From the NCBI GenBank assembly GCA_041661045.1, contig JBAZVE010000001.1, forward strand, positions 1,050,001 through 1,082,000: 32,000 nucleotides of DNA. The letters run 5' to 3'. Every line of letters begins with the position of its first letter. The first letter of the stretch is position 1. Source of the DNA: Candidatus Saccharimonadota bacterium. GTDB lineage: Bacteria; Patescibacteriota; Gracilibacteria; UBA1369; 2-02-FULL-48-14. Shown one piece after another: positions 2,652 to 31,187 of the stretch. A program made the position numbers and the translations under genes. The notes under the pieces are model-generated. The model had not been told where the DNA came from. It did not search any database and worked only from the letters and a program-made list of their open reading frames with translations.

Positions 2652-2662
2652 AATTGGTGTGA

Positions 2663-4603
<1,941 letters not shown>

Positions 4604-4750
4604 TTTTGGGCGGGGGTTTTGCACATTTGCACACCTTTTTTGCCGTGGTTTTTGAGAATTTGTCAGGAAAGTTTAAGGAAAAATTCAGAAAAAATTCAGG
4701 ATTTCATCAAGGTTGGGCTGTTATAACAGGTGTATCCTTAACTTTTACCT

Positions 4751-9212: not shown

Positions 9213-10218
9213 AGACTCTCAACCTTGCATCGTACTGGAATAAACCACTGTTTTGGAGGTGAGCGGTTGCCCTTTTTGGATCGATTGGAGCTTGAGTGGT
9301 AACTTCCCTAGTCAAACAGTGGGCCGCCCCCCCCAAAAAACGATTTTGACTGAGATCAAGCGTGTGTCGGGTGACGCCTGTTTCTGCCTCCTGTTGAACT
9401 TGCTTGCTTGTATATTTCCCGCTCGCAAATACTTCATCCCCCCATTGTACTTGATTGGGGGTGAGCGCATCTGCATCTGCCTTGGTGATGGGGTAGAGTG
9501 GTGCTGAAAGGTCTTTGGCAAGCTTTTCCATTTTTCTTCTTGATGGAGCTGTAAAAGCATCCATCCATGCAAAGAATTTAACGCCATCTTGAGTCACAAG
9601 ATGTGTGAAGACACAGTCTAGATGTAATCCGTCGACAAGATCGAAGCATTCATGTCTGATGGTTGGATCTTTTTCTGTTAGGAACTCTGTGACGACTTGT
9701 AGACCCTCTGCATCTGAACGAGTGGAGGTGCCTGAAATGTACCAAGTTTTTCCGTCCAATTTGAAAAATCGTGTATTACCTCCTTCGTGATATCCCTTTG
9801 GCATTGTTTGAGTCGGAACTCCAAGAGCATCGAAAAATACTTTGTTGAGTTCAGGCTCGTTTCTACGAGTGGGTGCACCCATATTTAAGAGGAGCATTGT
9901 GCCGTCCGGCCTTGTAAGGGAAGGATCTCGTAAAAATTCTATATCTTGAGTTAACCCATTTTCTTTAAAGACATCCTCTTTTGGATAGGGGACCACAATC
10001 AATGGCACGCCACTTCGTGCAAGTCGGGCGATCAAAGCTTGATGTTCTTGTCTTAGTCTTGTTACATCCCCCAACCATTTTTTCTCTTGAGCTTCTTGCA
10101 TATGGCCATTCCCGGGGGCTGCCTCTGGGATTCCATTTGGCCAATAGCCCACCTCTGCAGGTGGACTCTCCATGATCATGAGGTAATCACATTTCTCTCC
10201 CTCCATCAAGCTAGTCAT
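9199..10218 (-). CDS. Guanidino-group-modifying (GME) superfamily hydrolase, agmatine/peptidyl-arginine deiminase-like
   Basis: 339 aa. C-terminal catalytic-Cys motif LGGAAHCLTREV (compare GGGNIHCITQQ of agmatine deiminases), GLHLDCVF (His), an N-terminal PAEVGYWP segment, and DIEFLRDPS (compare D.W.RD.GP). The subfamily is assigned by eye only. Confidence 0.65.
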   Translation of the reverse strand: MTSLMEGEKCDYLMIMESPPAEVGYWPNGIPEAAPGNGHMQEAQEKKWLGDVTRLRQEHQALIARLARSGVPLIVVPYPKEDVFKENGLTQDIEFLRDPSLTRPDGTMLLLNMGAPTRRNEPELNKVFFDALGVPTQTMPKGYHEGGNTRFFKLDGKTWYISGTSTRSDAEGLQVVTEFLTEKDPTIRHECFDLVDGLHLDCVFTHLVTQDGVKFFAWMDAFTAPSRRKMEKLAKDLSAPLYPITKADADALTPNQVQWGDEVFASGKYTSKQVQQEAETGVTRHTLDLSQNRFLGGAAHCLTREVTTQAPIDPKRATAHLQNSGLFQYDARLRVFNNY

Positions 10219-10239
10219 AAAAAGAATTTCTTAAGGATA

Positions 10240-11046
10240 TTATCTTGGGAATTCCTTTCCTCGTGCAGTGAGGCTCACTGTCGCAGGATCAAAGGCAAGT
10301 CCTCTTGCTCGGATTTCCTCTAGCACTGGCTGGACATCAAAGCTCCTACAGCTGAAGAGATCAAAAAAGTATCTTCCTTCTGCGTCAACATGCAGGGCAA
10401 TGTGTGATTCTGCAATGAGAAGCACGCCATCTGTCCATCCTCCTTCTTTTGTAACATAAGGGGTCGTTACCGGGGTCATCCCTATTGATGGAGGCAACCT
10501 TTTCATGAAGTCATAGAGCCAATCGAGATCTCTTTGATCTTCAGGCAAGACCCCTTCCATCATAAGGTGAGGGCCAAAGGAGTGATCGATTTCAGCGGTA
10601 TCGGTGGGTTTGGTTTTCCCGCGTTCAAAAAGATCGTGTTTCTTCGTACGGAATTGCTCAATCATTTCACCCTTTAAAAGGTTTTTTAGATCTGGTCTTT
10701 TCCCACTTCGTCTTGTGGAAGTTCCGTTAGTAGGTCTGGCTCCTCTTGCGAGGGCAAGATCTGCAAATACGCAAGCCCTTGTTGGGTCACTGAAGCTATG
10801 GACGGTCATATGGCCTCCGGGGAAGACCCCCATTCCGGAAATTCCTTTATCTTCAGGTTTCTTTCCATCGAAGTAGGGGAAAAGGTGAGGAGGGTTGACC
10901 AGTGCTATTCCTAATTGATCGGCTATGTATTGCATAGAGCTGTGGAGATCCCTTAGATCTTCCAAATCTCTACAATTGCCTTTGTAGCCATCGTACATAA
11001 CATGATCGATTTTAAGGCGTGTTGGGTCAGGTCGTTTCGTGGACAT
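10240..11046 (-). CDS. Tandem-duplicated (pseudo-dimeric) AdoMetDC/SpeD-like pyruvoyl-dependent decarboxylase proenzyme
   Basis: The C-terminal half carries the class-1 AdoMetDC self-processing signature VLLIAE|SHIALHV...FFDLFSCRSFD (E213/S214 at 10405-10410). The N-terminal half has the same fold signature but is degenerate (GISGMGVFPGGHMTVHSF...CVFADLA, with no Ser). A basic linker joins the halves. Confidence 0.7.
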   Translation of the reverse strand: MSTKRPDPTRLKIDHVMYDGYKGNCRDLEDLRDLHSSMQYIADQLGIALVNPPHLFPYFDGKKPEDKGISGMGVFPGGHMTVHSFSDPTRACVFADLALARGARPTNGTSTRRSGKRPDLKNLLKGEMIEQFRTKKHDLFERGKTKPTDTAEIDHSFGPHLMMEGVLPEDQRDLDWLYDFMKRLPPSIGMTPVTTPYVTKEGGWTDGVLLIAESHIALHVDAEGRYFFDLFSCRSFDVQPVLEEIRARGLAFDPATVSLTARGKEFPR

Positions 11047-11327
11047 TTTAAAAAGTGTTAAAGATTACAAAGATTACATTTTTTTAGGAATTTCCATGCT
11101 TAGCATGTGGAATCCTTTTTTAAGTACAGTTTGGACACTTTGAAAAATTCTTCCGTAGACATATTTTTGTTCGTTGGTCATATCTATTACTTTTGTGAGT
11201 CTTTTTCCTTGTGAATAATAAGCGTTGATAGGAAACAGTGCCATCATAGGTTCACGCTTTATTAAAGTCAAATTTTGGCTTTAATAGGCCGCTTCTTCGC
11301 GTCTTTACAGAATTAATTTTTAGTGTT

Positions 11328-11936
11328 ATGCTCGTGACTACAACTCGAAGATTTATGGGACCTTCTGACACTCCTTCATCGGCTACCTGCTTGTATGATG
11401 CTCCAGTGAGTCTTTCCCATCCTTTGCTGCGAGAGATTATTCAGCAACTTTCTGCCGAACAAGTAAGCGCTTTATTTGGGGCGTCGTCTCTTACTCAAGA
11501 CGCAATGATGGAGCACCTTTTATCTCAGGCTGAAAAATTTGGATGTGATGTCCATGAACTTAGGGTTTATCTTTCAGACGCTGGATCTGCTCAATTTGTT
11601 ACTTTCCGTGGAGAAAATGCTGAAGACCGAATACTTGATCTTTGTAGGCCAGAATTGATGAAAGAGGATCCATTAACTTTTTCTGTGCGAACTTCTTTGG
11701 CGCGTGCCTTGGAGGAAGGTTTTGAAGAACTTCATGATTTGGATGCTTTGAGAGGAGAAGGTATCCCCCCTCATTTGGGCTATATCCTGGATCAGATCAC
11801 GATTGCTGGTGGGCAGCTTACAATAGGAGGCAGAATCCGCTCTATGCTTGGGGGCAGTCCTATTCCTCTTCGCTTCACATTTCCCTTGAGAGATCACTTG
11901 GAGGTGAACGGTGGGGATGAACTCACTTTTCAATAA
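11328..11936 (+). CDS. Hypothetical protein (202 aa)
   Basis: ATG-initiated ORF divergent from the decarboxylase operon. No motif recognised. Confidence 0.5.
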   Translation: MLVTTTRRFMGPSDTPSSATCLYDAPVSLSHPLLREIIQQLSAEQVSALFGASSLTQDAMMEHLLSQAEKFGCDVHELRVYLSDAGSAQFVTFRGENAEDRILDLCRPELMKEDPLTFSVRTSLARALEEGFEELHDLDALRGEGIPPHLGYILDQITIAGGQLTIGGRIRSMLGGSPIPLRFTFPLRDHLEVNGGDELTFQ

Positions 11937-11949
11937 GTTAAATTTTTAC

Positions 11950-11977
11950 TTGCAATCCAATTTTTTTGAGGTAGAGT
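11950..11977 (+). promoter_or_regulatory. Candidate promoter of the T-box leader
   Basis: TTGCAA (11950-11955), 16-nt spacer, TAGAGT (11972-11977). Stem I starts about 15 nt downstream. Confidence 0.4.
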
Positions 11978-11989
11978 TCCTTTGAAATG

Positions 11990-12265
11990 TCTGAAGAAAA
12001 GTAAGTGGACCCACGATGTTTGTAGAGAGCTGGGGGTGGTGAAAGCCCGGCAACTCGTCCCACTGAACGCCCTTCAAATTAAGACAGCAGCCGAAGAAAG
12101 CCCTTGTGGCAAGTAGGTGTCGCCGGCAGAGTCCGTTATCAAGCTCACGATATATTTCCTAGCTAACTAGAGATGTATCGAATAAGACTTTCCAGGGTAA
12201 CCTGGAAGTGAACAGGGTGGTACCGCGGATCATAAGATTCGCCCCTGACCTTAAGGGGTGTTTTT
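11990..12265 (+). promoter_or_regulatory. T-box riboswitch leader, putative Arg (CGC) specifier, controlling argG-argH
   Basis: The T-box sequence AGGGTGGTACCGCGG lies at about 12213-12228. The F-box CCGTTA is present in agtCCGTTAtc (about 12132-12140), as is an AGAGAG element (12023-12028). The distal hairpin is GCTGGG-GGTGGTGAAAG-CCCGGC. Stem III is TTCCAGG-GTAA-CCTGGAA (12190-12207). The specifier-loop geometry is UGAAG/AAAAGUA/AGUGGAC...GUCCCACU/GAA-CGC-C/CUUCA. A terminator hairpin follows at the 3' end. Confidence 0.8.
12241..12265 (+). terminator. Intrinsic terminator of the T-box leader
   Basis: GCCCCT-gacctta-AGGGGT followed by GTTTTT. Its 5' arm can instead pair with the AGGG of the T-box sequence (antiterminator). 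It ends 26 nt before the argG ATG. Confidence 0.75.
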
Positions 12266-12290
12266 CTATCATTTAAAACTTTTTCTTCTT

Positions 12291-13559
12291 ATGGACTCTA
12301 ATACTACTTATCAAAAAGCCGCTTCTTACGAGGCTCAGATAGGGCAGGTTAAGAAATGTGTACTGCTTTACTCGGGAGGTCTGGACACTTCTGTAATGTT
12401 GAAGTGGATTAAGGATACCTATGGGTGTGAAATTATTGCTTTGACTCTTGATCTTGGTCAACAGGCCGATGATCTTGAAGAGGTGAAGGCCAAGGCGCTT
12501 CGGTTGGGGGCTTCTAAGGCTTATGTTTTAGATTGTAAGGAAGAGTTTGCCAATGACTATATCTCTAAGGCCATCAAGGCAAATGCTTCTTATCAGGGGG
12601 ATTACCATTTAAGTACACCCATCGGTAGACCTTTGATTGCTAAAAAGGCTGTCGAAATTGCACTTCAAGAGGGGGCTGATGCCATTGCTCATGGATGTAC
12701 AGGCAAAGGGAATGATCAGGTGCGTATTGAGGCAACGGTTCTTTGTTATGCTCCAAAAATGAAAATTATTGCTCCTGTTCGCGAATGGGGAATGGGCCGA
12801 GAGGAAGAAATTGAATATGCAAAAAAACATGGGATAGAAACTCCTCAAACTAAGAAAAATCTTCCTTATTCCTGGGATGACAATATGTGGGGCCTTACCG
12901 GAGAGGGTGGGGAAATTGAAAACCCAAGTCTCAAACCTAAGTTGGAGCTTATTTTGCAGGTTTGTAAGACTCAGGAAGAGGCCTCAGACCAAAAGGAAGA
13001 ATTTGAGATTGAGTTTGCTGCCGGCGTCCCGGTTGCAATCAATGGAGAGAAGAAAGCCTTGCAAGATATTATTAAGGATTGTAATGCCATGGGGGCAAAA
13101 CATGCCATTGGATATGTGATTCTTATTGAAGATCGTTTGGTTGGCTTGAAAGTTCGTGGAGTTTATGAAAACCCCGGAGCGCATATTATTGTTACCACTC
13201 ATAAGAATTTAGAGAAAATTGTTTCTACTCAAACTGAAAATGAACTCAAGGAATTCATGGACAGCAAGTGGGCTTATATGTGCTACAGTGCAAAGTGGAT
13301 GGACCCTACAATGAAGCATGTAAACAGTTTCATCGCCAGTATGAATGAAAAAGTTACGGGTAAGGTGAGATTTTCCCTTTATAAGGGTAAAATAGATGTA
13401 CTCACGGTAAATTCCCCTTATTCTCTTTTCAACGAAAATTTGGCAACTTTCAATAAAAATGTGGCTTTCAACCAAAATGCGTCTGCTGGTTTCATAGAAA
13501 TTTACTCCTTGGCGATGAAAACTCACTACCAAGTAGAACAAGAAAATCACTCCAAATAA
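12291..13559 (+). CDS. argG: Argininosuccinate synthase
   Basis: LLYSGGLDTS ATP-PPase motif, IAHGCTGKGNDQVR, PYSWDDNMWG and IEDRLVGLKVRGVYENPG. The track start GTG 12258 lies inside the terminator hairpin, so ATG 12291 (MDSNTTYQ) is preferred. Confidence 0.9.
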   Translation: MDSNTTYQKAASYEAQIGQVKKCVLLYSGGLDTSVMLKWIKDTYGCEIIALTLDLGQQADDLEEVKAKALRLGASKAYVLDCKEEFANDYISKAIKANASYQGDYHLSTPIGRPLIAKKAVEIALQEGADAIAHGCTGKGNDQVRIEATVLCYAPKMKIIAPVREWGMGREEEIEYAKKHGIETPQTKKNLPYSWDDNMWGLTGEGGEIENPSLKPKLELILQVCKTQEEASDQKEEFEIEFAAGVPVAINGEKKALQDIIKDCNAMGAKHAIGYVILIEDRLVGLKVRGVYENPGAHIIVTTHKNLEKIVSTQTENELKEFMDSKWAYMCYSAKWMDPTMKHVNSFIASMNEKVTGKVRFSLYKGKIDVLTVNSPYSLFNENLATFNKNVAFNQNASAGFIEIYSLAMKTHYQVEQENHSK

Positions 13560-13561
13560 CT

Positions 13562-14866
13562 ATGTCTAAACTTTGGCAAAAGGAAGGTGCTGTTAAACTC
13601 AACAGTGTGGTGGAACGCTATACGGTTGGGGAGGACTATCTCCTAGATAGGGTTCTTTTCCCCTACGACATTATTGGGACGCTTGCTCATGCTAAGGCTT
13701 TGGCCCAAGCGAAAGTTATTTCTTTGGAAGAGCTTTCTAGCATTCAAAAAACTCTCAAAGCTTTAGCGGAATTGGTGAAGAGCGGTGATGTGACGATTTC
13801 TATTGAAGATGAGGATTGCCATACCGTTATGGAAAACTACCTCGTCTCAGAGCTGGGAGATCTTGGTAAAAAGATTCATACGGGTCGTAGTCGAAATGAT
13901 CAATCGTTGGTAGCGCTTAGGTTGTTCATGAAAGAGAACCTCCTGGTTACACAGCAACTTGTTAAAAAACTTGCTGAGGAGATACTGGTGTATGCCAAAA
14001 AGTACCGTTCTGTGGCTATGCCTGGTTACACTCACACACAACAAGCTATGCTCACGAGTGTCGGCCACCACATGCTTTCGTTTGTAGAGAGTTTGTTGGA
14101 TGACTTTTCTTTCCTGGATAGTGTGCTTAAACATATCGATAAAAATCCACTGGGATCGGCAGCTGGTTTTGGCAGTAATGTTCCTCTAGATCGTGAGTTG
14201 ACTACAAAGGAACTTGGATTCGCGTCGACTCAAATTAACTCTATTTATTGTCAGAGTAGCCGGGGTAAATTTGAGAGCGTTTACTTGGAGGGAGTTAATC
14301 AGATCATGATGACTCTTGGACGATTGGCCGCTGATTTTCTAATGTTTACTACCAGGGAATTTTCTTTCTTTGAAGTCGCTGCGGATCTCACGACGGGATC
14401 TTCCATTATGCCCCAGAAAAAAAATCTGGATTTATTGGAAGTTTTACGCGCTAATCTTTCCGTTTGTTTCGCAAACAAAGAAATGGTGCAAGGGATTTCA
14501 AAGGGCTTGCCTTCCGGTTATAACAGAGATTATCAACTTATCAAAAAAGCCGTTATTCAAAGCACTTCCATTGTTCAGGATAGTTTGCAGCTGATTTCTG
14601 TTTTTATTGGCGGTATCAAGCCTAAATCTGATGAGATTTTAACTAAAACACAGGATGACATTTATTCCGCAGATTTAGCTACTCAGCTGAGCTTCGAAAA
14701 AGGAATACCCTTTCGTGATGCCTACCAGGAGGTTATGACGAAGTTTAAAGATGGCTTTCGAGCCCTTGGTGAAGATCCCCAAAAAGTGTTACAAGGTCGT
14801 GCTACTCTGGGTGCACCTGGTAATGATGCTTTGAGTTACTATGAAAGTTTACTGATTTCACTATGA
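13562..14866 (+). CDS. argH: Argininosuccinate lyase
   Basis: Fumarate-lyase family signature GSSIMPQKKNLD, plus HTGRSRNDQ and MPGYTHTQQA. It starts 2 nt after the argG stop. Confidence 0.9.
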   Translation: MSKLWQKEGAVKLNSVVERYTVGEDYLLDRVLFPYDIIGTLAHAKALAQAKVISLEELSSIQKTLKALAELVKSGDVTISIEDEDCHTVMENYLVSELGDLGKKIHTGRSRNDQSLVALRLFMKENLLVTQQLVKKLAEEILVYAKKYRSVAMPGYTHTQQAMLTSVGHHMLSFVESLLDDFSFLDSVLKHIDKNPLGSAAGFGSNVPLDRELTTKELGFASTQINSIYCQSSRGKFESVYLEGVNQIMMTLGRLAADFLMFTTREFSFFEVAADLTTGSSIMPQKKNLDLLEVLRANLSVCFANKEMVQGISKGLPSGYNRDYQLIKKAVIQSTSIVQDSLQLISVFIGGIKPKSDEILTKTQDDIYSADLATQLSFEKGIPFRDAYQEVMTKFKDGFRALGEDPQKVLQGRATLGAPGNDALSYYESLLISL

Positions 14867-15030
14867 CTACTTCCGACTTTTCGCAAGATTCTGAGCCTAT
14901 TTAAAAAAAGACCGTTTTGTGTCAGTGCTTATGATAGAGTCGGTGAAGTTGAGGTAGATCGGAGGATGAAGATGGTGTTATACTCTGCTATTGCAGGTTA
15001 ACGAGTCTCTATTTCATTGCTATCCCTTCT

Positions 15031-15987
15031 ATGTTTCATCTCCGCCAAGTCATTCTTACGAGTTCTCAGCGGACGATTTTGAGTGATCTGTTGGAGTCTT
15101 TTAGTTCCGAAGATGTTTACGCACAGAGCTATTCTATTTCTGGATATCTCCATCAGCGCACGGATTTTTTTCGCCTGGCGCCCCCTTTTTTAAAAGATAT
15201 ATTCTTATCCTATCTCGATGCGGGATCTTTTGCTGATGCACTTGTTATCAAGAACTGTCCACTGGATTTGGATTTGCCATCCACTCCTCTTGATGAATCT
15301 CCATCTTTTTTTAAAAGTACTTTCTTGTCGGAGCATCTACTGCTCATGGCCAGTACTTTGCTGGGTACGCCTTTTGCTATTGATGCCGAAAACGCCGGGT
15401 TTTTGATCCATAACATTTATCCTGTCAAAAAACTTTCACAAAACCAATCTTCCAAATCTTCGGGCGTTATGCTGACTCTTCATACGGAATTGTCTTGTAT
15501 GACGGATCCTCCCGATTTCCTTGTTCTTTTGGGTTTACGCACGGCCGACTATAAGGTGAATACGCCTATTTTGAAATTGGACGAGCTTCTCGACTTCTTA
15601 ACGGAGTCAGAAATTGCTCTTTTGTATGAGCCTCTTTTTATTACAGAAATAGATGAATCACTGCGTAAAGATTTAAACAGTACGGTTTTTACTGAACCTT
15701 TCCGAATTCTTTCCCTCGTGGATGGGATTCGTGTTTGGCGCTATGATGTAGAGTATACCCGAGGTATTACTCCCGAGAGTCAGGCCGTTGTTCAGAAAAT
15801 AGTAGCCGTTCACGGGCCACTTTTCCATAATGTTGTTATTGATCCGGGCGATTTGCTTGTTATTAATAATACAAGAGTTGCTCATGGGCGAGAACCGTTT
15901 GAAGCAAAATACGACGGTTCGGATCGTTGGCTTCAGAGAGTGAATATTCATTTGAGCGATACTCAAAAAACTTTTTATAAAGTATAA
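15031..15987 (+). CDS. Fe(II)/2-oxoglutarate-dependent oxygenase, clavaminate-synthase-like amino-acid hydroxylase family (VioC/AsnO-like)
   Basis: H-x-E facial-triad motif and following segment: LTLHTELSCMTDPPDFLVLLGLR (compare LHTE.AF...RPDF..LLCLR). Distal His/Arg motif: LVINNTRVAHGREPF. Tail: DRWLQRVNI. Confidence 0.8.
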   Translation: MFHLRQVILTSSQRTILSDLLESFSSEDVYAQSYSISGYLHQRTDFFRLAPPFLKDIFLSYLDAGSFADALVIKNCPLDLDLPSTPLDESPSFFKSTFLSEHLLLMASTLLGTPFAIDAENAGFLIHNIYPVKKLSQNQSSKSSGVMLTLHTELSCMTDPPDFLVLLGLRTADYKVNTPILKLDELLDFLTESEIALLYEPLFITEIDESLRKDLNSTVFTEPFRILSLVDGIRVWRYDVEYTRGITPESQAVVQKIVAVHGPLFHNVVIDPGDLLVINNTRVAHGREPFEAKYDGSDRWLQRVNIHLSDTQKTFYKV

Positions 15988-15994
15988 GATTTCT

Positions 15995-17659
15995 ATGAAT
16001 AAAGCTGGGCAACGTTATATCCTCGGTTTCTCAGATTCCTTGCATGATAGATCGGTGTGTATTTTCAGAGATGCTGTTCCCCTCATTGCTATTGAGGAAG
16101 AGAGACTTTCTCGTGTCAAACATGGACTTGCACTCTATGGAGAGTCCAGGAAAAATCCTTCGATCTTTTCCCAAATGGAGTTGGAAAAATCCTCTTCTGA
16201 AGAAAACGAAGCTCGGTTGCAACCCTCCATTGATTACTGCTTAAACGCTTTGGGCATCACTATGGATGACATTGATGTGATTGCGGGGAATTCACTGCAT
16301 TTGGCTTTTCCGTTTCATGGTAACTCCATTCATATTAATCATCATTTGGCGCATGCCTCTGCGGCTTTTTATGCTTCTGGATTTCGAGAGGCTGCTATTT
16401 TTGTGGCGGATGGTTACGGCGATCTTTGCAACAGTCAGTGCTACGAGACCTTGATGTTGGCCAAAGGTAGAGATCAATCTATTAAGAAGCTTAAGTTGGT
16501 CACGGGCCATGTGACGAGCTATTACGATATGGAAAATTCTTTAGGAGTTTTCTATCGGATAGGAACTCTTTTGTCCGGTTTTGGAATGTTTGATGAGGGG
16601 AAAATGATGGGTTTGGCGGCGTATGGCGAACCAAAATATTATGATTTTATAAAGGATTTTCTTATTTTTCAGCCGGATTGTGTTTCGATTAAAAATGGTG
16701 AGCTTTTCAATGCTTTTTCCGATGCTGTGCAAGATAGAAGTGCTTTTGAACTGAGAGCAAATATAGCCGCTTCGTTTCAACGTGTTTTTGAGGAAATTGT
16801 TTTCTTCTACATCCATCATCTTTATGAAATAGCAGAGAGTGAGAATTTGTGTATCTCTGGTGGGATTGGACTCAACTGCGTGATGAATGCCAAGGCTTTA
16901 ATGCAATCGAAATTTAAGAATGTTTTTGTTTTCCCAGGCCCTGGAGACAATGGAATTTCTTTTGGAGCAGCCTATTTTGTTGCTCATCAGCTTTTGGGCC
17001 TTCCGCGTACTGAGCCGTTGGACATTGCTTATTTTGGCAAGGCCTATACTCAGAGTCAGGAGTTGGAAGTCTTAGAGAAGTATAGCGACCAAGTAGAGTT
17101 TGAAGAGCTGAATGAAGATGAGCTCACGACTCTTGCTGCTGATTTATTGGTGAAAGACAATGTGATCATGTGGTTTCAGGAGGGATGTGAATTTGGCCCA
17201 AGAGCTTTGGGCCACCGAAGCTGTTTAGGGAACCCTATGCGTGTAGAGACGAAAGACTATATCAATGCGAAAGTGAAGTTCAGAGAGACATTCAGGCCTT
17301 TGGCGCCGATTGTTTTGGAAGAATACATGCGAGATTTTTTTGATATCAGCTGTCCATCGCCATTTATGCTTTTTTCTCCTCGTGTTAGAGAGAAGACTAA
17401 GGAAATGGCTCCTGGCATTGTTCATGTGGATGGCACTTCAAGGTTGCAGACGATCAATCGCAAACAAAATGCAAAACTGTATTCCTTGATTCATAAATTT
17501 TTTGATCAAACTCAGGTGCCTATTATCCTCAATACTTCTTTCAATGGTAAGGATGAGCCAATTGTGGAGACTCCCGAAGATGCTCTCAAGAGCTTTTTGA
17601 GTTCCCCTGTGGAACACTTATTTATTGATAATTATCACATAACCAAAAACATATCTTGA
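15995..17659 (+). CDS. NodU/CmcH-family (TobZ-like, ATP-dependent) carbamoyltransferase
   Basis: 554 aa. ILGFSDSLHDRSVCIF...AIEEERLSRVKH, HHLAHASAAFYASGF, ISGGIGLNCVMN, FGPRALGHRSCLGNP, FRPLAP, VHVDGTSRLQT and ILNTSFNGKDEPIV. It starts 7 nt after the oxygenase stop. Confidence 0.85.
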   Translation: MNKAGQRYILGFSDSLHDRSVCIFRDAVPLIAIEEERLSRVKHGLALYGESRKNPSIFSQMELEKSSSEENEARLQPSIDYCLNALGITMDDIDVIAGNSLHLAFPFHGNSIHINHHLAHASAAFYASGFREAAIFVADGYGDLCNSQCYETLMLAKGRDQSIKKLKLVTGHVTSYYDMENSLGVFYRIGTLLSGFGMFDEGKMMGLAAYGEPKYYDFIKDFLIFQPDCVSIKNGELFNAFSDAVQDRSAFELRANIAASFQRVFEEIVFFYIHHLYEIAESENLCISGGIGLNCVMNAKALMQSKFKNVFVFPGPGDNGISFGAAYFVAHQLLGLPRTEPLDIAYFGKAYTQSQELEVLEKYSDQVEFEELNEDELTTLAADLLVKDNVIMWFQEGCEFGPRALGHRSCLGNPMRVETKDYINAKVKFRETFRPLAPIVLEEYMRDFFDISCPSPFMLFSPRVREKTKEMAPGIVHVDGTSRLQTINRKQNAKLYSLIHKFFDQTQVPIILNTSFNGKDEPIVETPEDALKSFLSSPVEHLFIDNYHITKNIS

Positions 17660-17743
17660 AGCCATTGCTCTCCATGTTTTCCCTTCTCGCACCTATCAAT
17701 ATAGGTGTGTTTTTGTATGATGTTATTCAAAACTCTTTGAACC

Positions 17744-18736
17744 ATGCTTCCTGATGAAATTTCTTTCCTTGTGGATTTCTTGAATGTTCCGTCTGTAACA
17801 GGAAGCGAGCATGCGTCCGCCATGTTTTTGTTCCAGTGGATGAAACGAAACTTACCCCATGATGTTTTGGAATTGCAGAATGTTATAAACGGGAGATCAA
17901 ATATTGTATTGAGAAGAGGAAATCCTTCACTCACACTAACATCACATCTTGATACTGTGCCTGGTGGTCCTCATGTCAGAATGGCCTCCGGCAGAGTATA
18001 TGGTCGTGGATCATGTGATGCAAAGGGCCAAATTGTTGCTCAGCTTTCCGCTTTGAAGCGAATGATCAAGAGTGGTCTTAGTGAATATGCCTGTTTTTAT
18101 GTGATTGGAGAGGAAGTGGATAGTATTGGGGCGAGACATCTTATTAACCATTCGAGTATTGGTTCCGAATATCTTCTTAATGGAGAGCCAACGGGGAATA
18201 AATTCATACATGCATCAGCTGGAATTTTGGATTTTAGCCTCTCGACGACGGCAAAAAAGCAGCATACTTCTATTCCAGGCTTTCGTTCGGCTATTCATGA
18301 CTTAGTCCTCGACATACATCTATTATTGAACGGGAAATATGGTAGTTCGATAAATGTTGGTTACATTCAAGGGGGTGAAGCGCTGAATGTTAGTACGGGA
18401 ACTGCTACTGCACATATATCTGTTCGTATACAGGAGGACCCCGCTCTGATTTTGCGGAAGATAAAAAAGATATGCTTGAACGCGTCTGTAAAGATGCTGG
18501 ATCCTGCCCTGAAGCCATTTGTCTTTTATGTTCCACCTCAGTATAGGGAGAATGCTATTCGTGTACTTTTTTCTTCGGATAGTCCCTTGTACGCTAAGAA
18601 ATTTAAAAAGATTATGATGTTTGGTCCAGGGGATATTCTTATGGCTCATGCGGATAATGAATATATATCATTATCGCAGATGGATGAGGGTTTGGATATT
18701 ATTTCACAACTCTTACGGAAGTATGATGCCAATTGA
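17744..18736 (+). CDS. M20-family metallo-deacylase/peptidase (ArgE/DapE-like)
   Basis: PSVTGSEH, LTSHLDTVPGG (H.D metal ligand), GRGSCDAKGQ and VIGEEVDSIGA. At 330 aa it is shorter than typical ArgE/DapE. Confidence 0.75.
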   Translation: MLPDEISFLVDFLNVPSVTGSEHASAMFLFQWMKRNLPHDVLELQNVINGRSNIVLRRGNPSLTLTSHLDTVPGGPHVRMASGRVYGRGSCDAKGQIVAQLSALKRMIKSGLSEYACFYVIGEEVDSIGARHLINHSSIGSEYLLNGEPTGNKFIHASAGILDFSLSTTAKKQHTSIPGFRSAIHDLVLDIHLLLNGKYGSSINVGYIQGGEALNVSTGTATAHISVRIQEDPALILRKIKKICLNASVKMLDPALKPFVFYVPPQYRENAIRVLFSSDSPLYAKKFKKIMMFGPGDILMAHADNEYISLSQMDEGLDIISQLLRKYDAN

Positions 18737-19163
18737 AATTCAAATGACTGATGGAAAATCCGACTTCATGTCTGCTATTTTTGATTTGCGTCATGAGGTT
18801 TTTGTAGTTGAGCAGCATGTTCCGATTGAGCTTGAAATTGATGAATTTGATCAAGAGGCCATGCATTTTTTTGCATTACAGGGCGATCAGATAGTTGGCA
18901 CACTTCGTATTCTTGCTGAGGATGATCATGTCAAAATTGGGCGTGTAGCTGTGAAAAAGGATCATAGAAAACTTGGAATTGGACGAAAAATAATGGAGAC
19001 CGCCATGAATTATATTCAGAATAGTGGCTATACAACTATAGTTCTGGGTGCTCAACTGGAGGTCGTGCCATTCTATCAAAAGCTTGGTTTTGTTGAGGAG
19101 GGTGAGATTTTTGATGATGCGGGTATTGATCACATTATGATGGTGAAAAGAGTGAATCATTGA
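18723..19163 (+). CDS. GNAT-family N-acetyltransferase (ElaA/YjcF-like)
   Basis: RHEVFVVEQHVP...DEFD, VGTLRI, the acetyl-CoA motif IGRVAVKKDHRKLGIGRKIM, and FYQKLGFVEEGEIFDDAGIDHIMM. ATG 18723 overlaps the M20 stop by 14 nt. ATG 18744 is an alternative start. The track start at 18621 is unlikely. Confidence 0.75.
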   Translation: MMPIEIQMTDGKSDFMSAIFDLRHEVFVVEQHVPIELEIDEFDQEAMHFFALQGDQIVGTLRILAEDDHVKIGRVAVKKDHRKLGIGRKIMETAMNYIQNSGYTTIVLGAQLEVVPFYQKLGFVEEGEIFDDAGIDHIMMVKRVNH

Positions 19164-19209
19164 TAAGTTTATTCAGTATCTTGAATCTTTGTTTGTAATC
19201 CCTAAAGAG

Positions 19210-19821
19210 ATGAATGCAAGAATAAATAATTTAACCGTTGATCAGCCAAAGGTTAGGGCTGGTGATGTTCGCGTAAGTCCACAAATGTTCGAGCAGTTAC
19301 GGGAAGTCGAAGCTCGGTCTGCCGAGATTACTGGTATACTCCTTAAAGTGATGAATTCTGCTGGTGTTGAAGAGGCGATTTTTGATGGTGGCTTTCTGGC
19401 GTGTAAAGATGACGGGGACTCTACTTCTTCGACTTCCGAGAACCTTACAGTCAGAAAAGAAGAGATTGCTGGACGGTTAGTTGAAAGGATAGTAAGGGAT
19501 TTTACCGATATTCCTGCTGATCAACTCGTATCACGGCACAGTGATGATAGGAATCCACTTGTTGTTTTTTCCGCTCAGGATTTGGAGGTTATTGGATTTA
19601 GTCTCTATGACAAGTACCTAGAAGGATGGATGTCTTATGAGCAGGTGAGAAGAGGCCGTGAACATATGGGATTCATGGATGATGTATTCGCTAAGGTTGT
19701 TTCAAGTTTTGAACAAACCAGTCGTGGATCTGGATCTCATTACTCATTATATTTATTGCCAAGTAAGCGTAGTTTATCGGTCTTTTTGCGTCATACTGGG
19801 CAGGGTTTTCCAGTACCTTAA
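19210..19821 (+). CDS. Hypothetical protein (about 203 aa)
   Basis: The ORF track starts at TTG 19189. The first ATG is at 19210 (MNARINN...). No motif recognised. It is co-directional with the cassette. Confidence 0.45.
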   Translation: MNARINNLTVDQPKVRAGDVRVSPQMFEQLREVEARSAEITGILLKVMNSAGVEEAIFDGGFLACKDDGDSTSSTSENLTVRKEEIAGRLVERIVRDFTDIPADQLVSRHSDDRNPLVVFSAQDLEVIGFSLYDKYLEGWMSYEQVRRGREHMGFMDDVFAKVVSSFEQTSRGSGSHYSLYLLPSKRSLSVFLRHTGQGFPVP

Positions 19822-19975
19822 TGTCGAAAATTTTTGACTGATTTGACGCAGACTACCGCAAAGATTGATGATGCAACCACTTTCAGGCCCATCTTGTATT
19901 GGAAGAGAGTATCTTGATTTGATGCCAGAAAGGCTGTAAGCTGACCTTCTGAAGCAATTACAGTCATTCATTATT

Positions 19976-21976
19976 ATGTCAACTGCAGAATCTCATGTTT
20001 ATAGCCTTTGTGATGAGCTGACCTCTGTTGTTGAAGGTACTCTTGGAAAGAAACTGGGGCAACCTGTTACGAGGGCGAGAGTTGAGGGAGCGGACTATGG
20101 TTTGAACCTCCATGCTTTGCGTGAGGCTACAGAAAGTATAGATGATGTTGTTGTGAGAATCAGGGACCTTATTATAGGATTGATCCCTGCTGGTATTACG
20201 ATTTCTGCTGAAAAAGGTTTTATTAATTTTCAAGTTTCGAACGAAGCGTTGGGACGGGTTGTTGCAAATATTGTTGATCAGCCTAACGGAGGAATAGAGC
20301 CTGTCGGTGATCGTACTATGTTGGAGTTTTTTAGTCCCAACACCAATAAGCCCATGCACTTGGGGCATCTTAGAAATATTGCATTGGGAGAAAGTTTGGC
20401 CCGATTGCTCCAGTTTTTCGGACACGATGTCACCAAAGTGAATCTGTTCAATGATCGTGGTGCTCATATTTGTAAATCTATGCTTGCCTACCAATTGTAT
20501 GGCGGTGAAGCCACGCCTGAGTCCACCGGCGTTAAAGGCGATCATTTTGTTGGGGATTACTATGTTCGTTACGAGAAAGATTTGCAGGCACAGCTAAAAC
20601 CCATTATTGAGCGCATCAAGAGTGAGCCTGAGATGGCAGCAGAGCTGTTGGCATCCAGCGAAGAACTCGCAAAACTTGAATCGGCAATGAAAGATCAGCC
20701 TACTGATAAAACACTCAAGCTTGCTTTTGAAAAAGCCAAGAAAAAACACGCAAACTTGGAAGAACGTGTTGTAAGTCAGGCTAAAGCTGAAGCTCCCCTC
20801 GTTCTTGAAGTGAATGAAATGCTTCAAAAATGGGAAGATGGAGATCCGGAGGTGCGGGCGCTATGGGAAAAGATGAACGGCTGGGCTATTGGAGGTATGG
20901 AACAAACGCTGGATCGTCTCGACACGCATTTTGACATTATCTATTTCGAATCACAGACTTATAAGCTTGCGATGGACATGATTCAGAAAGGTTTGGACAG
21001 TGGTACCTTTGAAAGGGATCCAAGCGGTGCTGTAGTTGCTGATTTAGAAAAACTTGGGGTGCGGGATAGAAAGGGGAATCCCTTGAGTGGTAAGAAAGTT
21101 TTGCTGCGCTCTGATGGAACGAGTGTATACATCACTCAGGATTTGGCTATGGCGGAACTCAAAGCGAAGGACTATCACCCGGATAACAGTATGTATGTAG
21201 TGGCTGATGAACAACTTCGTCACTTCGAAGTCCTTTTTGGAATTCTTAAGGCTTTGGGCTACGGCTGGGCTGATAAACTCAAACACATTCCTTATGGTAT
21301 GGTGGACCTTCCCTCGGGACGAATGAAATCTCGTGAAGGAACGGTGGTGGATGCGGACGATATCCTTGATGCGCTGCGTGACAATGTAAAAGCAGTGAGT
21401 GCTCAATCTTCGGATCTTGCAGATGCCGGAAGGGTGCCTCGACGGGAGGTGCTTGAGGATGAAGTCGCTGACAAAATTGGTATTGCAGCTATGCGCTATT
21501 ACCTTCTGTCGAGTCGCCCTGACAGTAGAATAAAATTTGATCCGGAACAATCGGTAAAGCTTGAAGGGAAGACAGGTCCTTATATTCTTTATCAATATGT
21601 CCGCAGTGGAAAGATTCTCCAAACTGCTGAAGACAATGGTGGGGGAGTTTCAACGCCTGGCGCAGCTCCGGATTTTTCTACTCTGGCTGACCCAGCTGAG
21701 CATGACCTTTTGATGACATTGGTTGAATTTACAGATTGTATGAAAACTATTCAGAGGACTCTTGATCAAACGCTTTTATCTGATTATGTGTACAAGTTGG
21801 CTAAAGCGTTTGCGGTTTTCTACGAGAAGTGTCCGATTTTTAAGCCGGCACTGGCGGGTCAAGACCCCATTGCTCCTGAACTTAAAAATACCCGACTTGC
21901 ACTTGTTCAGTATTCCCATTCCTTGTTATCGAAATCTTTGGAATTGCTTGGAATAGAGAAAGTGGAGCGAATGTAG
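19976..21976 (+). CDS. argS: Arginine--tRNA ligase
   Basis: Class I HIGH motif (PNTNKPMHLGHLRN), NDRGAHI, a KMSKS-equivalent GRMKSREGTVV, and a C-terminal anticodon-binding (DALR-type) region ending in the typical terminal RM. At 666 aa it carries a K/E/A-rich insertion between the HIGH and MKSR motifs. Confidence 0.9.
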   Translation: MSTAESHVYSLCDELTSVVEGTLGKKLGQPVTRARVEGADYGLNLHALREATESIDDVVVRIRDLIIGLIPAGITISAEKGFINFQVSNEALGRVVANIVDQPNGGIEPVGDRTMLEFFSPNTNKPMHLGHLRNIALGESLARLLQFFGHDVTKVNLFNDRGAHICKSMLAYQLYGGEATPESTGVKGDHFVGDYYVRYEKDLQAQLKPIIERIKSEPEMAAELLASSEELAKLESAMKDQPTDKTLKLAFEKAKKKHANLEERVVSQAKAEAPLVLEVNEMLQKWEDGDPEVRALWEKMNGWAIGGMEQTLDRLDTHFDIIYFESQTYKLAMDMIQKGLDSGTFERDPSGAVVADLEKLGVRDRKGNPLSGKKVLLRSDGTSVYITQDLAMAELKAKDYHPDNSMYVVADEQLRHFEVLFGILKALGYGWADKLKHIPYGMVDLPSGRMKSREGTVVDADDILDALRDNVKAVSAQSSDLADAGRVPRREVLEDEVADKIGIAAMRYYLLSSRPDSRIKFDPEQSVKLEGKTGPYILYQYVRSGKILQTAEDNGGGVSTPGAAPDFSTLADPAEHDLLMTLVEFTDCMKTIQRTLDQTLLSDYVYKLAKAFAVFYEKCPIFKPALAGQDPIAPELKNTRLALVQYSHSLLSKSLELLGIEKVERM

Positions 21977-23420: not shown

Positions 23421-23496
23421 GGATCGGTAGCTCAGTTGGTAGAGCAGAAGACTCTTAATCTTTTGGTCGCGGGTTCGAATCCCGCCCGGTCCACCA
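23421..23496 (+). tRNA. tRNA-Lys (anticodon CUU), CCA encoded
   Basis: Manual cloverleaf. Acceptor GGATCGG/CCGGTCC. D arm GCTC-AGTTGGTA-GAGC. Anticodon stem GAAGA/TCTTT with loop CTCTTAA. T arm GCGGG-TTCGAAT-CCCGC. Discriminator A followed by CCA. Confidence 0.9.
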
Positions 23497-24979: not shown

Positions 24980-25054
24980 GGCAAGGTGGCGGAGCGGTTA
25001 CGCAGCGGTTTGCAAAACCGTACCACACGGGTTCGAATCCCGTCCTTGCCTCCA
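24980..25054 (+). tRNA. tRNA-Cys (anticodon GCA), CCA encoded
   Basis: Acceptor GGCAAGG/CCTTGCC. Anticodon stem GCGGT/ACCGT with loop TTGCAAA. T arm ACGGG-TTCGAAT-CCCGT. Discriminator U (the Cys identity element) followed by CCA. Confidence 0.9.
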
Positions 25055-25087
25055 CTCGTCGAAGACGAGCGTTCCTGTCTGTCCCTC

Positions 25088-25173
25088 GCCTGGGTGGTGA
25101 AATGGTATACACGCGAGACTTAAAATCTTGTGGTCGCAAGACCGTGTGGGTTCGATCCCCACCCCAGGCACCA
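25088..25173 (+). tRNA. tRNA-Leu (anticodon UAA), class II long variable arm, CCA encoded
   Basis: Acceptor GCCTGGG/CCCAGGC. Anticodon stem CGAGA/TCTTG with loop CTTAAAA. Long variable arm TGGTCGCAAGACCGT. T arm GTGGG-TTCGATC-CCCAC. Discriminator A followed by CCA. Confidence 0.9.

Positions 25174-29729: not shown

Positions 29730-31187
<1,458 letters not shown>

Follow-up and report, generated by a model that had tools for sequence, protein, structure and literature searches.

Clusters for non-canonical amino acids that carry guarding tRNA deacylases include that for fuscazine, with its Arg 3-hydroxylase; 3-hydroxyarginine can be translated in arginine's place and its gene cluster encodes a protective tRNA deacylase (Millar et al. 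2026, PMC13149037). In clusters for inhibitors of aminoacyl-tRNA synthetases (aaRS), it is aaRS and GNAT genes that provide self-immunity, the synthetase being ArgRS for trifolitoxin-like compounds (bioRxiv 10.64898/2025.12.02.691738). As to chemistry, the NodU-type enzyme PolO has a free hydroxy amino acid as its substrate for O-carbamoylation (PMC4029187), and in KDO1 the residues D234, S236 and D268 contact the N-epsilon of lysine (PMC6224419).

How does a locus with enzymes of these types directly before an ArgRS gene compare? The five genes and argS considered here lie in a window, the whole stretch of 32,000 nucleotides analysed, and with a probability of about one half they represent one instance of a module that is rare, moves horizontally and serves to make a modified arginine analogue with ArgRS-linked protection.

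The five genes and their host

The window's host is a Peribacteria-type CPR genome carrying a Gracilibacteria label, and due to that label genetic code 25 was considered. As TGA is the stop codon of 10 of the 25 long ORFs in the window, and the ORFs are uninterrupted, the standard code (table 11) applies. The cassette ORFs, on the plus strand like all other features given here, are 15031-15987, 15995-17659, 17744-18736, 18723 (ATG)-19163 and 19189/19210-19821. The 7-nt gap between the hydroxylase and carbamoyltransferase genes (15988-15994) and the 14-nt overlap of the M20 and GNAT genes (18723-18736) are both as the initial annotation had them. Its family assignments were borne out by Pfam search (PF02668; PF02543+PF16861; PF01546; GNAT PF13673/PF00583; one orphan), and, as it stated, NRPS, PKS and ATP-grasp genes are absent from the vicinity of the cassette. 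That the five genes are a real set and not a chance one is confirmed by their being found together again in other genomes. DDAH-like and AdoMet_dc-like genes are also near the cassette in the window.

The first gene (15031..15987) encodes an amino-acid hydroxylase, CAS-like and Fe(II)/2-oxoglutarate-dependent, with a predicted pocket for a cationic side chain. Its Pfam match is TauD (PF02668, 42.7 bits), and the proposal that it is nevertheless of the CAS-like amino-acid-hydroxylase type, not TauD, holds: the best PDB matches are the L-lysine 3-hydroxylase KDO1 (1.1e-25) and OrfP (1.3e-25), then VioC, AsnO and CAS, with no TauD or AtsK chain among the matches at E<=0.01. The quoted motifs are found, LHTE at residues 150-153, VAHGR at 283-287 and DRWLQR at 298-303. 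Close homologues number about nine, all metagenomic, in a search of 5.8 billion protein clusters; H151/E153/H285, R299/R303 and D208/S210/D239 are unchanged in 9 homologues, and the last three also in both dioxygenase types that occur in cassettes. D208/S210/D239 align to KDO1 D234/S236/D268, and so, by alignment, the enzyme has the acidic pocket that had been anticipated for a basic side chain. Judged in this way, it retains the Fe/2OG residues and a two-Asp pocket for cationic side chains.

The second gene (15995..17659; Carbam_trans_N and C, PF02543+PF16861, 125 and 207 bits) specifies a NodU/CmcH/TobZ-type carbamoyltransferase with a Kae1-like N-terminal and a YrdC-like C-terminal domain, the motif NHHLAHA at residues 115-121, and PDB matches to 7xb6 (1.5e-69), NovN, GdmN and TobZ. 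The 84-nt gap 3′ of it contains a terminator-like hairpin (17688..17709; 9-bp stem, z -2.4) followed by UUUUUG, in the position where relatives (L001 and L003) have a methyltransferase gene.

The third product is an M20 metallo-deacylase of ArgE/LysK/DapE type (17744..18736; Peptidase_M20 and M20_dimer, PF01546+PF07687), with metal and catalytic motifs intact (H68, D92, E123-E124, E148, H302). Its best NCBIfam models are LysK and N-acetyl-lysine/ornithine deacetylases, all under cut-off, and its PDB matches include LysK (5xoy), 4q7a and acetylcitrulline deacetylase (2f7v). The small single-domain GNAT of ElaA/YjcF type (18723..19163; Acetyltransf_10/1/7, PF13673/PF00583) has the motif RKLGIG at residues 82-87 and PDB matches to SACOL1063 (1e-25), YjcF, ElaA and glyphosate N-acetyltransferase; presumably it is an N-acetyltransferase acting on a small amine or amino acid. 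The fifth product, of 203 aa (19210..19821), has zero matches in Pfam, NCBIfam, PADLOC and PDB, and just four relatives, one a fragment, in a search of 1.8 billion representatives. Its gene is in every case directly 5′ of argS in the Peribacteria cassettes, adjoining it in L001 and L062, and one relative (P0024, 35%) is in an unrelated context in L061.

The module at other loci

With the carbamoyltransferase as marker gene, the module was found beside argS at five loci besides the window, in permuted gene orders, though three of the six loci are from one Peribacteria clade and may stem from a single ancestral insertion beside argS. The order at L001/L012 is orphan, argS, dioxygenase, carbamoyltransferase, methyltransferase, M20, GNAT, and at L003 with L062 it is dioxygenase, carbamoyltransferase, methyltransferase, M20, GNAT, orphan, argS. 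L063, where a tRNA gene and fragments of transposases are adjacent, has dioxygenase, carbamoyltransferase, M20, ArgRS, GNAT, carB and carA; L064 has M20, GNAT, radical SAM, ArgRS and carbamoyltransferase; L065 has ArgRS, radical SAM and a gene labelled unk and, after a break, dioxygenase, carbamoyltransferase, M20 and GNAT. The conserved neighbourhood that the initial annotation had put up for checking is there: the genes are co-localised in related genomes, so ‘never co-localised’ does not apply.

The constants are thus the NodU/TobZ-type carbamoyltransferase (54–75% identity between orthologues in cassette loci), the ArgE/LysK-like M20 enzyme (39-43%), the ElaA-type GNAT (34-47%) and ArgRS, plus a C-H-oxidising enzyme that differs by locus, being one of two CAS-like dioxygenase types or a radical SAM/SPASM protein. 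Not every locus has the orphan, carAB or a HemK-like N-methyltransferase; the closest relatives have the methyltransferase gene (HemK/PrmC-like) between those for the carbamoyltransferase and M20, and the window lacks it. Around generic NodU-type control loci, M20, GNAT or ArgRS neighbours occur at 0 of 79 (760 kb). The Nevskiaceae MAG label of L063 disagrees with its ArgRS and CarB, leaving its host uncertain. L065, bracketed by relaxase/primase genes on one side and T4CP/serine-recombinase genes on the other, has a GC content of 0.455 versus 0.53 in its flanks; its module is carried by a mobile element, in a genome of 6 Mb.

The radical SAM proteins of L064 and L065 are SPASM-type with peptide maturases as best models, and so hint at a peptide substrate there, which counts against the arginine-analogue reading. 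Could the enzymes then modify an arginine residue within a small, RiPP-like peptide? At the edges of the same two cassettes are short ORFs without annotation (94 and 73 aa), and the ArgRS-inhibiting tiarins are RiPPs. It is nonetheless very unlikely, as the window, L001, L003 and L063 are without a radical SAM gene or an evident precursor gene, the two radical SAM proteins have no detectable mutual similarity, and free amino acids are the typical substrates of CAS-like hydroxylases with such a pocket, of ArgE-like M20 enzymes and of ElaA-type GNATs.

argS as a partner

In the window argS (19976..21976; TIGR00456, 361 bits versus a cut-off of 261.65) encodes an ArgRS of 666 aa with HLGH at 128-131, YITQD at 385-389, Q413 and MKSR at 450-453. 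The initial annotation had it as a mere flank, and it is indeed beside the cassette, but ArgRS adjoins the carbamoyltransferase orthologue at all six loci with enough flank, the window included, and is a conserved partner. The four ArgRS types across the module loci share merely 23–27% identity, quite a contrast to the better-conserved carbamoyltransferase (54–62% in the same comparison), M20 and GNAT, and so ArgRS has apparently joined the cassette more than once, by recruitment, instead of being passed down with it.

What was first proposed, a cassette for tailoring a free amino acid, would do without any functional ArgRS tie, and argS would often adjoin it only because conserved or arginine-related regions are where the cassette inserts. 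The Peribacteria enzyme is in keeping with this, as the ArgRS adjoining the cassette there is the ordinary, housekeeping lineage type, 67–73% identical to that of cassette-less L009-L011, and TrmB-argS adjacency in L011 suggests insertion beside a pre-existing argS. Such indifference to argS is unlikely, however, with ArgRS of four lineages adjoining orthologous genes in permuted orders, embedded amid the cassette genes in L064 and within the mobile-element cargo in L065, and with the control loci lacking such neighbours.

Does the adjoining ArgRS have marks of resistance? Two positions are specific to cassette-bearing genomes, and random partitions give as many. The columns that we take, after the yeast ArgRS structure, to be first-shell arginine-binding have the canonical residues in three of the four types, with a conservative Glu to Asp change in L064, and so there is no sign of a resistant ArgRS in these sequences. 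A tolerant ArgRS is what a resistance or detoxification island would have, one directed at an arginine antimetabolite or ArgRS inhibitor from outside and including enzymes to acetylate, hydroxylate and carbamoylate the toxin. GNAT paired with an aaRS copy is an established form of immunity (bioRxiv 10.64898/2025.12.02.691738); mobility of the module would also fit, and in cassette-less L010 a YbaK-type tRNA-editing gene adjoins argS. Though the least improbable of the rival explanations, it is unlikely: ATP-dependent carbamoylation with hydroxylation and a deacylase looks like build-up, not inactivation, the deacetylase would reverse GNAT-based protection, and a literature search for precedent found none.

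The upstream arginine genes

Directly 5′ of the cassette in the window are argG (12291..13559; argininosuccinate synthase, NF001770, 505 bits versus a cut-off of 334) and argH (13562..14866; argininosuccinate lyase, TIGR00838, 302.8 versus 279.5), which like argS are above their NCBIfam equivalog cut-offs. The T-box claimed for argG is supported by a leader (11985..12249) that fits Rfam RF00230 at 77.8 bits (E 5.5e-16), though under the gathering score of 93; it carries the AGGGUGGUACCGCG box, reads GAA-CGC (Arg) at the specifier position, and has a terminator-like hairpin at 12240-12260, 3′ of which is the argG ATG (12291). The 164-nt spacer between argH and the dioxygenase gene has no terminator and its structure is unremarkable (z -1.0).

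Do these genes point to arginine or citrulline being supplied by an unconventional route? The GNAT would in that case be akin to a short ArgA, the M20 enzyme to ArgE or acetylcitrulline deacetylase, to which with LysK it is closest, and the NodU-type enzyme would replace ornithine carbamoyltransferase, all feeding an argG-argH pair controlled by the T-box(Arg); carAB, adjoining in L063, would provide carbamoyl phosphate there. The terminator-free spacer and the nearby DDAH-like and AdoMet_dc-like genes would suit this. Such a route is quite unlikely, as equivalents of ArgB, ArgC and ArgD are absent, the hydroxylase and radical SAM enzyme would have no task, the closest relatives carry an N-methyltransferase, and the module is as rare as its few dioxygenase homologues and is mobile cargo in a 6-Mb genome. 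Furthermore, argG-argH are missing from every other locus, and no T-box was found in L062-L065; the partnership of T-box and argG-argH with the cassette that had been suggested is therefore not conserved. They are context in this window, outside the conserved module, while argS is inside.

A candidate pathway

The preferred reading, of a module for a modified arginine analogue, has as probable product an arginine-type amino acid that is hydroxylated and O-carbamoylated, against which GNAT and ArgRS would protect the producer. The linkage of ArgRS suggests that the product is an arginine-like amino acid to be kept from the host's own protein synthesis. We infer which substrate is used (Arg, Lys or Orn), where it is hydroxylated and that carbamoylation is at O rather than N.

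The hydroxylase would act on L-arginine in its free form, or on a closely similar basic analogue, and add a hydroxyl, probably at C-beta. GNAT acetylation of the alpha-amine would next block charging by ArgRS and protect the intermediate, and the carbamoyltransferase, forming carbamoyl-AMP from carbamoyl phosphate and ATP, would O-carbamoylate the new hydroxyl. In the closest relatives, not the window, the HemK-like (NPPF) methyltransferase may N-methylate a carbamoyl or guanidino nitrogen. The M20 enzyme would finally strip the acetyl group to yield the free arginine analogue. The proposed reason for ArgRS staying linked is competition with arginine at this enzyme, by the product or an intermediate acting as inhibitor or mis-charged substrate; the linked ArgRS and GNAT would then be the producer's protection. 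In the window the arginine neighbourhood (T-box-argGH, DDAH-like, AdoMet_dc-like) may supply substrate and may lift arginine when tRNA-Arg is uncharged.

Comparison with known systems

The dioxygenase is of the same fold family as KDO1, OrfP/VioC (L-Arg) and GntD, sharing the HxE...H triad, the 2OG-binding Arg and the two-Asp cationic sub-pocket (PMC6224419), while having low identity to solved CAS-like enzymes and being far under equivalog cut-offs (GntD, 138 bits versus 345; VioC, 108 versus 418).

The carbamoylpolyoxamic-acid branch of polyoxin synthesis resembles the cassette as read here: it includes a hydroxylation, its N-acetyl chemistry is taken from the arginine pathway, and the substrate of PolO is a hydroxy amino acid in free form (PMC4029187). 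Still, the cassette is without a PolP-like kinase, PolM-like reductase, nucleoside or ligase genes, its deacylase is an M20 enzyme, and it has a linked ArgRS; the analogy drawn earlier survives for the NodU-type step and not for the remainder, with neither kinase nor reductase present.

For physostigmine (psm), Liu et al. in 2014 are said to have described hydroxylation, N-acetylation, O-carbamoylation, N-methylation of the carbamate and deacetylation. If so, this set of reaction types equals that of the methyltransferase-bearing relatives L001 and L003, though the psm substrate is reportedly a tryptamine rather than a basic amino acid, the enzymes unrelated and an aaRS lacking.

On the side of immunity, tiarins/trifolitoxin (ArgRS) and microcin C (MccE) have an aaRS copy and GNAT (bioRxiv 10.64898/2025.12.02.691738), and like such clusters the cassette has ArgRS and GNAT with biosynthetic genes, is in unrelated hosts and is mobile; it differs in lacking genes for a precursor peptide, for YcaO and for tfx enzymes of nitroreductase type, and in its wholly different enzymology. 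Fuscazine-type clusters are likewise small and class-independent, with a hydroxyarginine that threatens translation and a co-located translation-quality gene (PMC13149037). The cassette has no N-N bond or ATP-grasp genes, and its guard, in place of an AlaX-type deacylase, would be ArgRS, GNAT or the orphan.

A recurrent gene module and its arginyl-tRNA synthetase

Five co-directional genes lie between argG-argH and argS: a dioxygenase (15031-15987; PF02668), a carbamoyltransferase (15995-17659; PF02543 and PF16861), an M20 deacylase (17744-18736; PF01546 and PF07687), a GNAT (ATG at 18723, to 19163; PF13673/PF00583) and an orphan without Pfam match that begins at TTG 19189 or ATG 19210 and extends to 19821, the public annotation (P0021) having the 203-aa ATG form under locus tag WC777_05180. 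The gap of 7 nt between the dioxygenase and carbamoyltransferase genes, the 14-nt overlap of the M20 and GNAT genes and the Pfam families are all as the initial annotation had it. NCBIfam equivalog cut-offs are reached by argG, by argH and by argS (TIGR00456), whose product is MFA6024572.1, and the sequences nearest to the ArgRS are from Peribacteria/Peregrinibacteria MAGs (64-73% identity). In some Gracilibacteria TGA is decoded as glycine, and the Gracilibacteria label of the source prompted consideration of genetic code 25, which was rejected: TGA serves as a stop in the window, where it ends 10 of 25 long ORFs, and the ORFs run without interruption, as they should under the standard bacterial code. 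The window also has genes for 16S rRNA, tRNA-Lys(CUU), tRNA-Cys and tRNA-Leu(UAA) (29730-31187; 23421-23496; 24980-25173).

Is the cassette peculiar to one genome? Conservation of the neighbourhood, which the initial annotation had proposed looking for, is found, and the module is conserved, mobile and linked to ArgRS. In two lineages the cassette recurs with one extra gene, for a HemK/PrmC-like methyltransferase with an NPPF motif, between the carbamoyltransferase and M20 genes. The order is orphan-argS-dioxygenase-carbamoyltransferase-methyltransferase-M20-GNAT in a Peribacteria MAG (L001, the same as L012), and TrmB-like-dioxygenase-carbamoyltransferase-methyltransferase-M20-GNAT-orphan-argS in a locus assembled from L003, L004 and L062 by 100% identical overlaps. 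The wider family of carbamoyltransferase orthologues is at 45-62% identity, with members at 45% or more in Vibrio mediterranei, Actinokineospora baliensis, Actinoplanes and Parafrankia EAN1pec among others, and every further context retrieved for it holds M20, GNAT and ArgRS: L063 (dioxygenase-carbamoyltransferase-M20-ArgRS-GNAT-carB-carA, adjoining tRNA-Gln and transposase fragments), L064 from a member of the Peribacteraceae (M20-GNAT-radical SAM-ArgRS-carbamoyltransferase) and L065, where ArgRS-radical SAM-unknown is divergent from dioxygenase-carbamoyltransferase-M20-GNAT. Across these loci the carbamoyltransferases are 54-62% identical, the M20 enzymes 39-43% and the GNATs 34-47%. The L065 cassette is within a 6.03-Mb contig, between relaxase/primase/RadC/methylase genes on one side and T4CP-like and large-serine-recombinase genes on the other, and has a GC content of 0.455 against 0.53 for its flanks. 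An Acido-Lenti-1 RNA motif (L065 20238-20283, minus strand; 42 bits, over the gathering score) adjoins the large serine recombinase gene at the edge of the mobile element. As for L063, whose MAG is labelled Nevskiaceae, neither its ArgRS, at 145 bits to that of E. coli, nor its CarB is typical of gammaproteobacteria, and its carB (14059-18302, minus strand), next to the cassette, scores higher against human CPS1 (1054 bits) than against E. coli CarB (845 bits). The island must have a foreign origin or else the bin a wrong label.

The four ArgRS types involved are mutually only 23-27% identical. An ArgRS gene is beside the carbamoyltransferase orthologue in 6 of 6 orthologous loci and in none of 79 generic carbamoyltransferase loci, the latter being NodU-type loci from metagenomes (29-37% identity, 760 kb) that have no ArgRS, M20, GNAT or dioxygenase of the cassette kinds; that scan included one orthologue, L067 at 55%, with a dioxygenase gene directly upstream, on a contig that stops within the carbamoyltransferase gene. 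That ArgRS is a mere neighbour of the cassette is contradicted by a linkage which spans several lineages in permuted orders. ArgRS being one gene out of about a thousand or more in each genome, we infer that four unrelated ArgRS lineages, in permuted orders, do not adjoin the cassette by chance. Co-location across hosts beyond chance is one mark of a target-copy self-resistance cluster of the aaRS-inhibitor or antimetabolite type. The argS gene, earlier taken as a boundary, is the real conserved partner, and the earlier stress on argGH was misplaced: argG, argH and the T-box adjoin the cassette in the window only.

The methyltransferase, carAB and radical SAM/SPASM genes are optional members. 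The presence of SPASM radical SAM genes in two variants does suggest that the cassette enzymes might have a peptide as substrate, though the window is without a radical SAM gene or an evident precursor gene. The orphan, for which Pfam, NCBIfam, PADLOC and PDB profile searches gave nothing informative, is limited to Peribacteria cassettes, and there is always immediately upstream of argS. An exhaustive search found just four true relatives, one of them a fragment, and two further matches that are spurious repeat proteins; a relative at 35% identity occurs in an unrelated context.

The enzymes

The dioxygenase scores 42.7 bits to PF02668, the TauD family, where the gathering score is 27. Its PDB matches are KDO1, which is an L-lysine 3-hydroxylase, the arginine hydroxylases OrfP and VioC, NapI, AsnO, CAS and CmnC; no TauD or AtsK chain is among them at E<=0.01, and so by PDB matches it does not group with sulfonate/sulfate dioxygenases, which upholds the initial description of it as CAS-like rather than TauD-like. 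Nine homologues, among them a second dioxygenase type of other cassettes that is only 24-27% identical, all keep the iron triad H151/E153/H285 and, for 2OG, the arginines R299 and R303. Invariant in the same nine are D208, S210 and D239, the counterparts by alignment of KDO1 D234, S236 and D268. In KDO1 those residues hold the epsilon-amine of lysine, and such a ‘DXXD’ sub-pocket is typical of CAS-like enzymes that act on cationic side chains (PMC6224419). By alignment, then, the window enzyme has the predicted two-Asp sub-pocket for a cationic side chain. Identification as an orthologue of VioC or of GntD was rejected because the scores are far below the NCBIfam equivalog cut-offs (108.4 against 418.6 for VioC; 137.9 against 345 for GntD). 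Among 5.8 billion protein clusters there are only about nine close homologues, which makes them very rare, and the more distant P0011 and P0013 are in unrelated contexts.

Dioxygenase homologues at 46-53% identity occur in other small cassettes. One (L008 662-3985) has a phosphoribosyltransferase, a Peptidase_S66 (MccF-like) and a SAM methyltransferase, another (L002 5751-10773) has PRTase, HAD, ScmC, GT28 and polysaccharide deacetylase genes, and the third (L005 1161-6269) has genes of sugar-nucleotide type. These possibly make other products from the same hydroxy amino acid.

By both its domains, Kae1-like at the N-terminus (PF02543, 125 bits) and YrdC-like at the C-terminus (PF16861, 207 bits), and by the HHxxH metal motif (NHHLAHA at 115-121), the second enzyme is of NodU/CmcH/TobZ type and its putative reaction is O-carbamoylation. 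Among solved structures it resembles the O-carbamoyltransferases TobZ, GdmN and NovN (E 1e-57 to 1e-69), as well as 7xb6, a carbamoyltransferase without a name, and at 148.7 it does not reach the NCBIfam NodU equivalog cut-off of 1000. A search of plasmids gave no orthologue (best match 35% identity), and in viral contigs the matches reached 35% at most. In the M20 enzyme both the catalytic (PF01546) and dimerisation (PF07687) domains were found, and its metal and catalytic motifs are intact, with H68, D92, E123-E124, E148 and H302 presumably having the metal and general-base roles of their counterparts in DapE and CPG2. NCBIfam and PDB comparisons place it closest to LysK, N-acetyl-ornithine/lysine deacetylases and acetylcitrulline deacetylases, all of the ArgE, LysK and DapE equivalog models being under their cut-offs (the best, LysK, 109.5 against 363). 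The GNAT is, from PDB matches, of the small ElaA/YjcF type, a family that includes glyphosate N-acetyltransferase; its nearest solved relative is SACOL1063, for which a search gave no substrate information.

argGH, a probable T-box and a variable neighbourhood

The T-box claimed upstream of argGH (11985-12249) is a probable one: it has the conserved T-box sequence, a terminator hairpin and CGC (Arg) read in the specifier position, and its score of 77.8 bits is under the RF00230 gathering score of 93, but with E 5.5e-16 over the full model. Such a T-box(Arg)-argGH unit would raise arginine when tRNA-Arg is uncharged, and since the spacer between argH and the dioxygenase gene is without a terminator, co-induction of the cassette is possible. 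At the other cassette loci no T-box or other regulatory RNA was found. Within the window's 84-nt gap between the carbamoyltransferase and M20 genes is a 9-bp GC-containing hairpin followed by UUUUUG (17688-17709; z -2.4). It occupies the exact place of the methyltransferase gene in relatives, and it may be what a deletion left behind or may act as an internal terminator/attenuator.

GC3 in the block 9199-21976 is 0.33-0.42, lower than the 0.47-0.62 of the DNA on either side; the block may be an island, or its expression may differ. Besides T-box-argGH, cassette, orphan and argS, it contains two minus-strand genes divergent from the T-box operon, one of the DDAH/arginine-deiminase superfamily (9199-10218) and one of the AdoMet_dc family (10240-11046), possibly a pyruvoyl arginine decarboxylase, together with a plus-strand ORF of 202 aa just upstream of the T-box (11328-11936; orf202), for which Pfam, NCBIfam and PADLOC gave no match and the loci compared gave no homologue. 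Two relatives that lack the cassette, L009 and L010, have homologues of the DDAH-type and AdoMet_dc-family genes on the flanks of argS. In L010, from Peregrinibacteria, argH and argS are separated by a methyltransferase gene, two genes of DDAH type and one for a free-standing tRNA-editing domain of YbaK type (867-5410). The region is therefore a hotspot of arginine metabolism whose content varies, and the L010 arrangement suggests that Arg-tRNA quality control recurs as a theme of this locus. In cassette-less L011 (9085-11932) the gene directly upstream of argS is for a TrmB-family regulator, and in L003/L004 such a gene immediately precedes the cassette, and so it looks as if cassette and orphan were inserted between TrmB and argS.

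Might the cassette be just an unconventional supply route for arginine or citrulline? With argGH, carAB and an ArgE-like M20 enzyme such a route would agree, but it leaves the hydroxylase, the radical SAM enzyme and the methyltransferase with no role, ArgB, ArgC and ArgD are missing, and the rarity of the module and its carriage on a mobile element are poorly reconciled with it.

A candidate arginine antimetabolite

The enzyme families, intact active sites, cation-binding pocket (by alignment), module conservation, mobility and ArgRS linkage are established here. In the chemistry that we would propose, L-arginine in its free form, or a basic analogue close to it, would first be hydroxylated, after which the GNAT would acetylate the hydroxylated intermediate at N-alpha and the carbamoyltransferase would O-carbamoylate it through carbamoyl-AMP. 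Where the NPPF methyltransferase is present, it may then N-methylate, the expected target being, as for HemK, a planar amide or guanidino nitrogen. Deacetylation by the M20 enzyme would free the product. The ArgRS linkage would be explained if the product, or an intermediate, competed with arginine at ArgRS. That frame is supported by two recent studies: translation can take 3-hydroxyarginine for arginine, and a tRNA deacylase in the 3-hydroxyarginine cluster is protective (PMC13149037); and in clusters for aaRS inhibitors, including ArgRS-directed relatives of trifolitoxin, immunity comes from GNATs and copies of the aaRS (bioRxiv 10.64898/2025.12.02.691738). For the carbamoylation, PolO is a NodU-type enzyme able to O-carbamoylate a free hydroxy amino acid (PMC4029187). 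At roughly three chances in ten, we would tentatively consider the module a mobile cluster for an undescribed arginine antimetabolite, of O-carbamoyl (in relatives N-methylcarbamoyl) hydroxy-arginine type, acting on ArgRS, with the linked ArgRS and GNAT providing producer immunity.

How far does ArgRS itself bear this out? Within Peribacteria the linked ArgRS is the ordinary enzyme of the lineage, the two ArgS clades there (window, L009 and L010; L001, L062 and L011) each mixing cassette-bearing and cassette-less genomes, and no resistance signal is apparent in it, only two positions (399 and 590) being cassette-specific, no more than for random partitions. In the columns that we take, from the yeast ArgRS structure, to be the first shell of arginine binding, three of the four ArgRS types have the canonical residues, and in L064 there is a conservative Glu to Asp change. 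Comparison of the types with 46 background ArgRS sequences was uninformative, the set being biased to the window's subfamily. An extra argS copy in the host can be inferred for the mobile-element-borne L065 alone.

Could the genes instead be a detoxification island, directed against an external arginine analogue? It is possible, the reaction set however looking like a build-up sequence, and the deacetylase would reverse any protection given by the GNAT. Were it detoxification, or salvage, the module would still define a new arginine-linked enzyme set. If it does specify an antimetabolite, this would be a chemical weapon or competition factor against translation for genome-reduced CPR bacteria (Peribacteria), and CPR bacteria are thought to possess very little secondary metabolism. 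To our knowledge, few natural small molecules that act on ArgRS are known. As a conserved unit of ~6-8 kb, expressible as one piece and with its own ArgRS, the module is directly testable for a new arginine analogue, for possible ArgRS-directed action and for how producers exclude analogues from their proteins. More generally, aaRS adjacency can mark amino-acid clusters that standard cluster-finding rules miss.

Relation to known systems

The initial annotation's reading of a hydroxylase-plus-carbamoyltransferase cassette for amino-acid tailoring stands, its observation being confirmed and its interpretation supported in part. The likeness to the polyoxin family set extends to the NodU-type step only. 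The CPOAA branch of polyoxin synthesis (PolL-PolP) has the acetylglutamate kinase PolP and the reductase PolM alongside PolN and PolO, whereas no kinase or SDR is around the cassette in the window or in the related loci. Full-text searches of open-access papers turned up neither an account of a module joining ArgRS, carbamoyltransferase and hydroxylase nor one of a carbamoylated hydroxyarginine as product. Each of the enzyme families is already known, as is the idea that a translation gene can guard a small cluster for an amino acid; what is new is how the enzymes are combined, where the combination occurs, namely on a mobile element and in CPR bacteria, and the tie to ArgRS.
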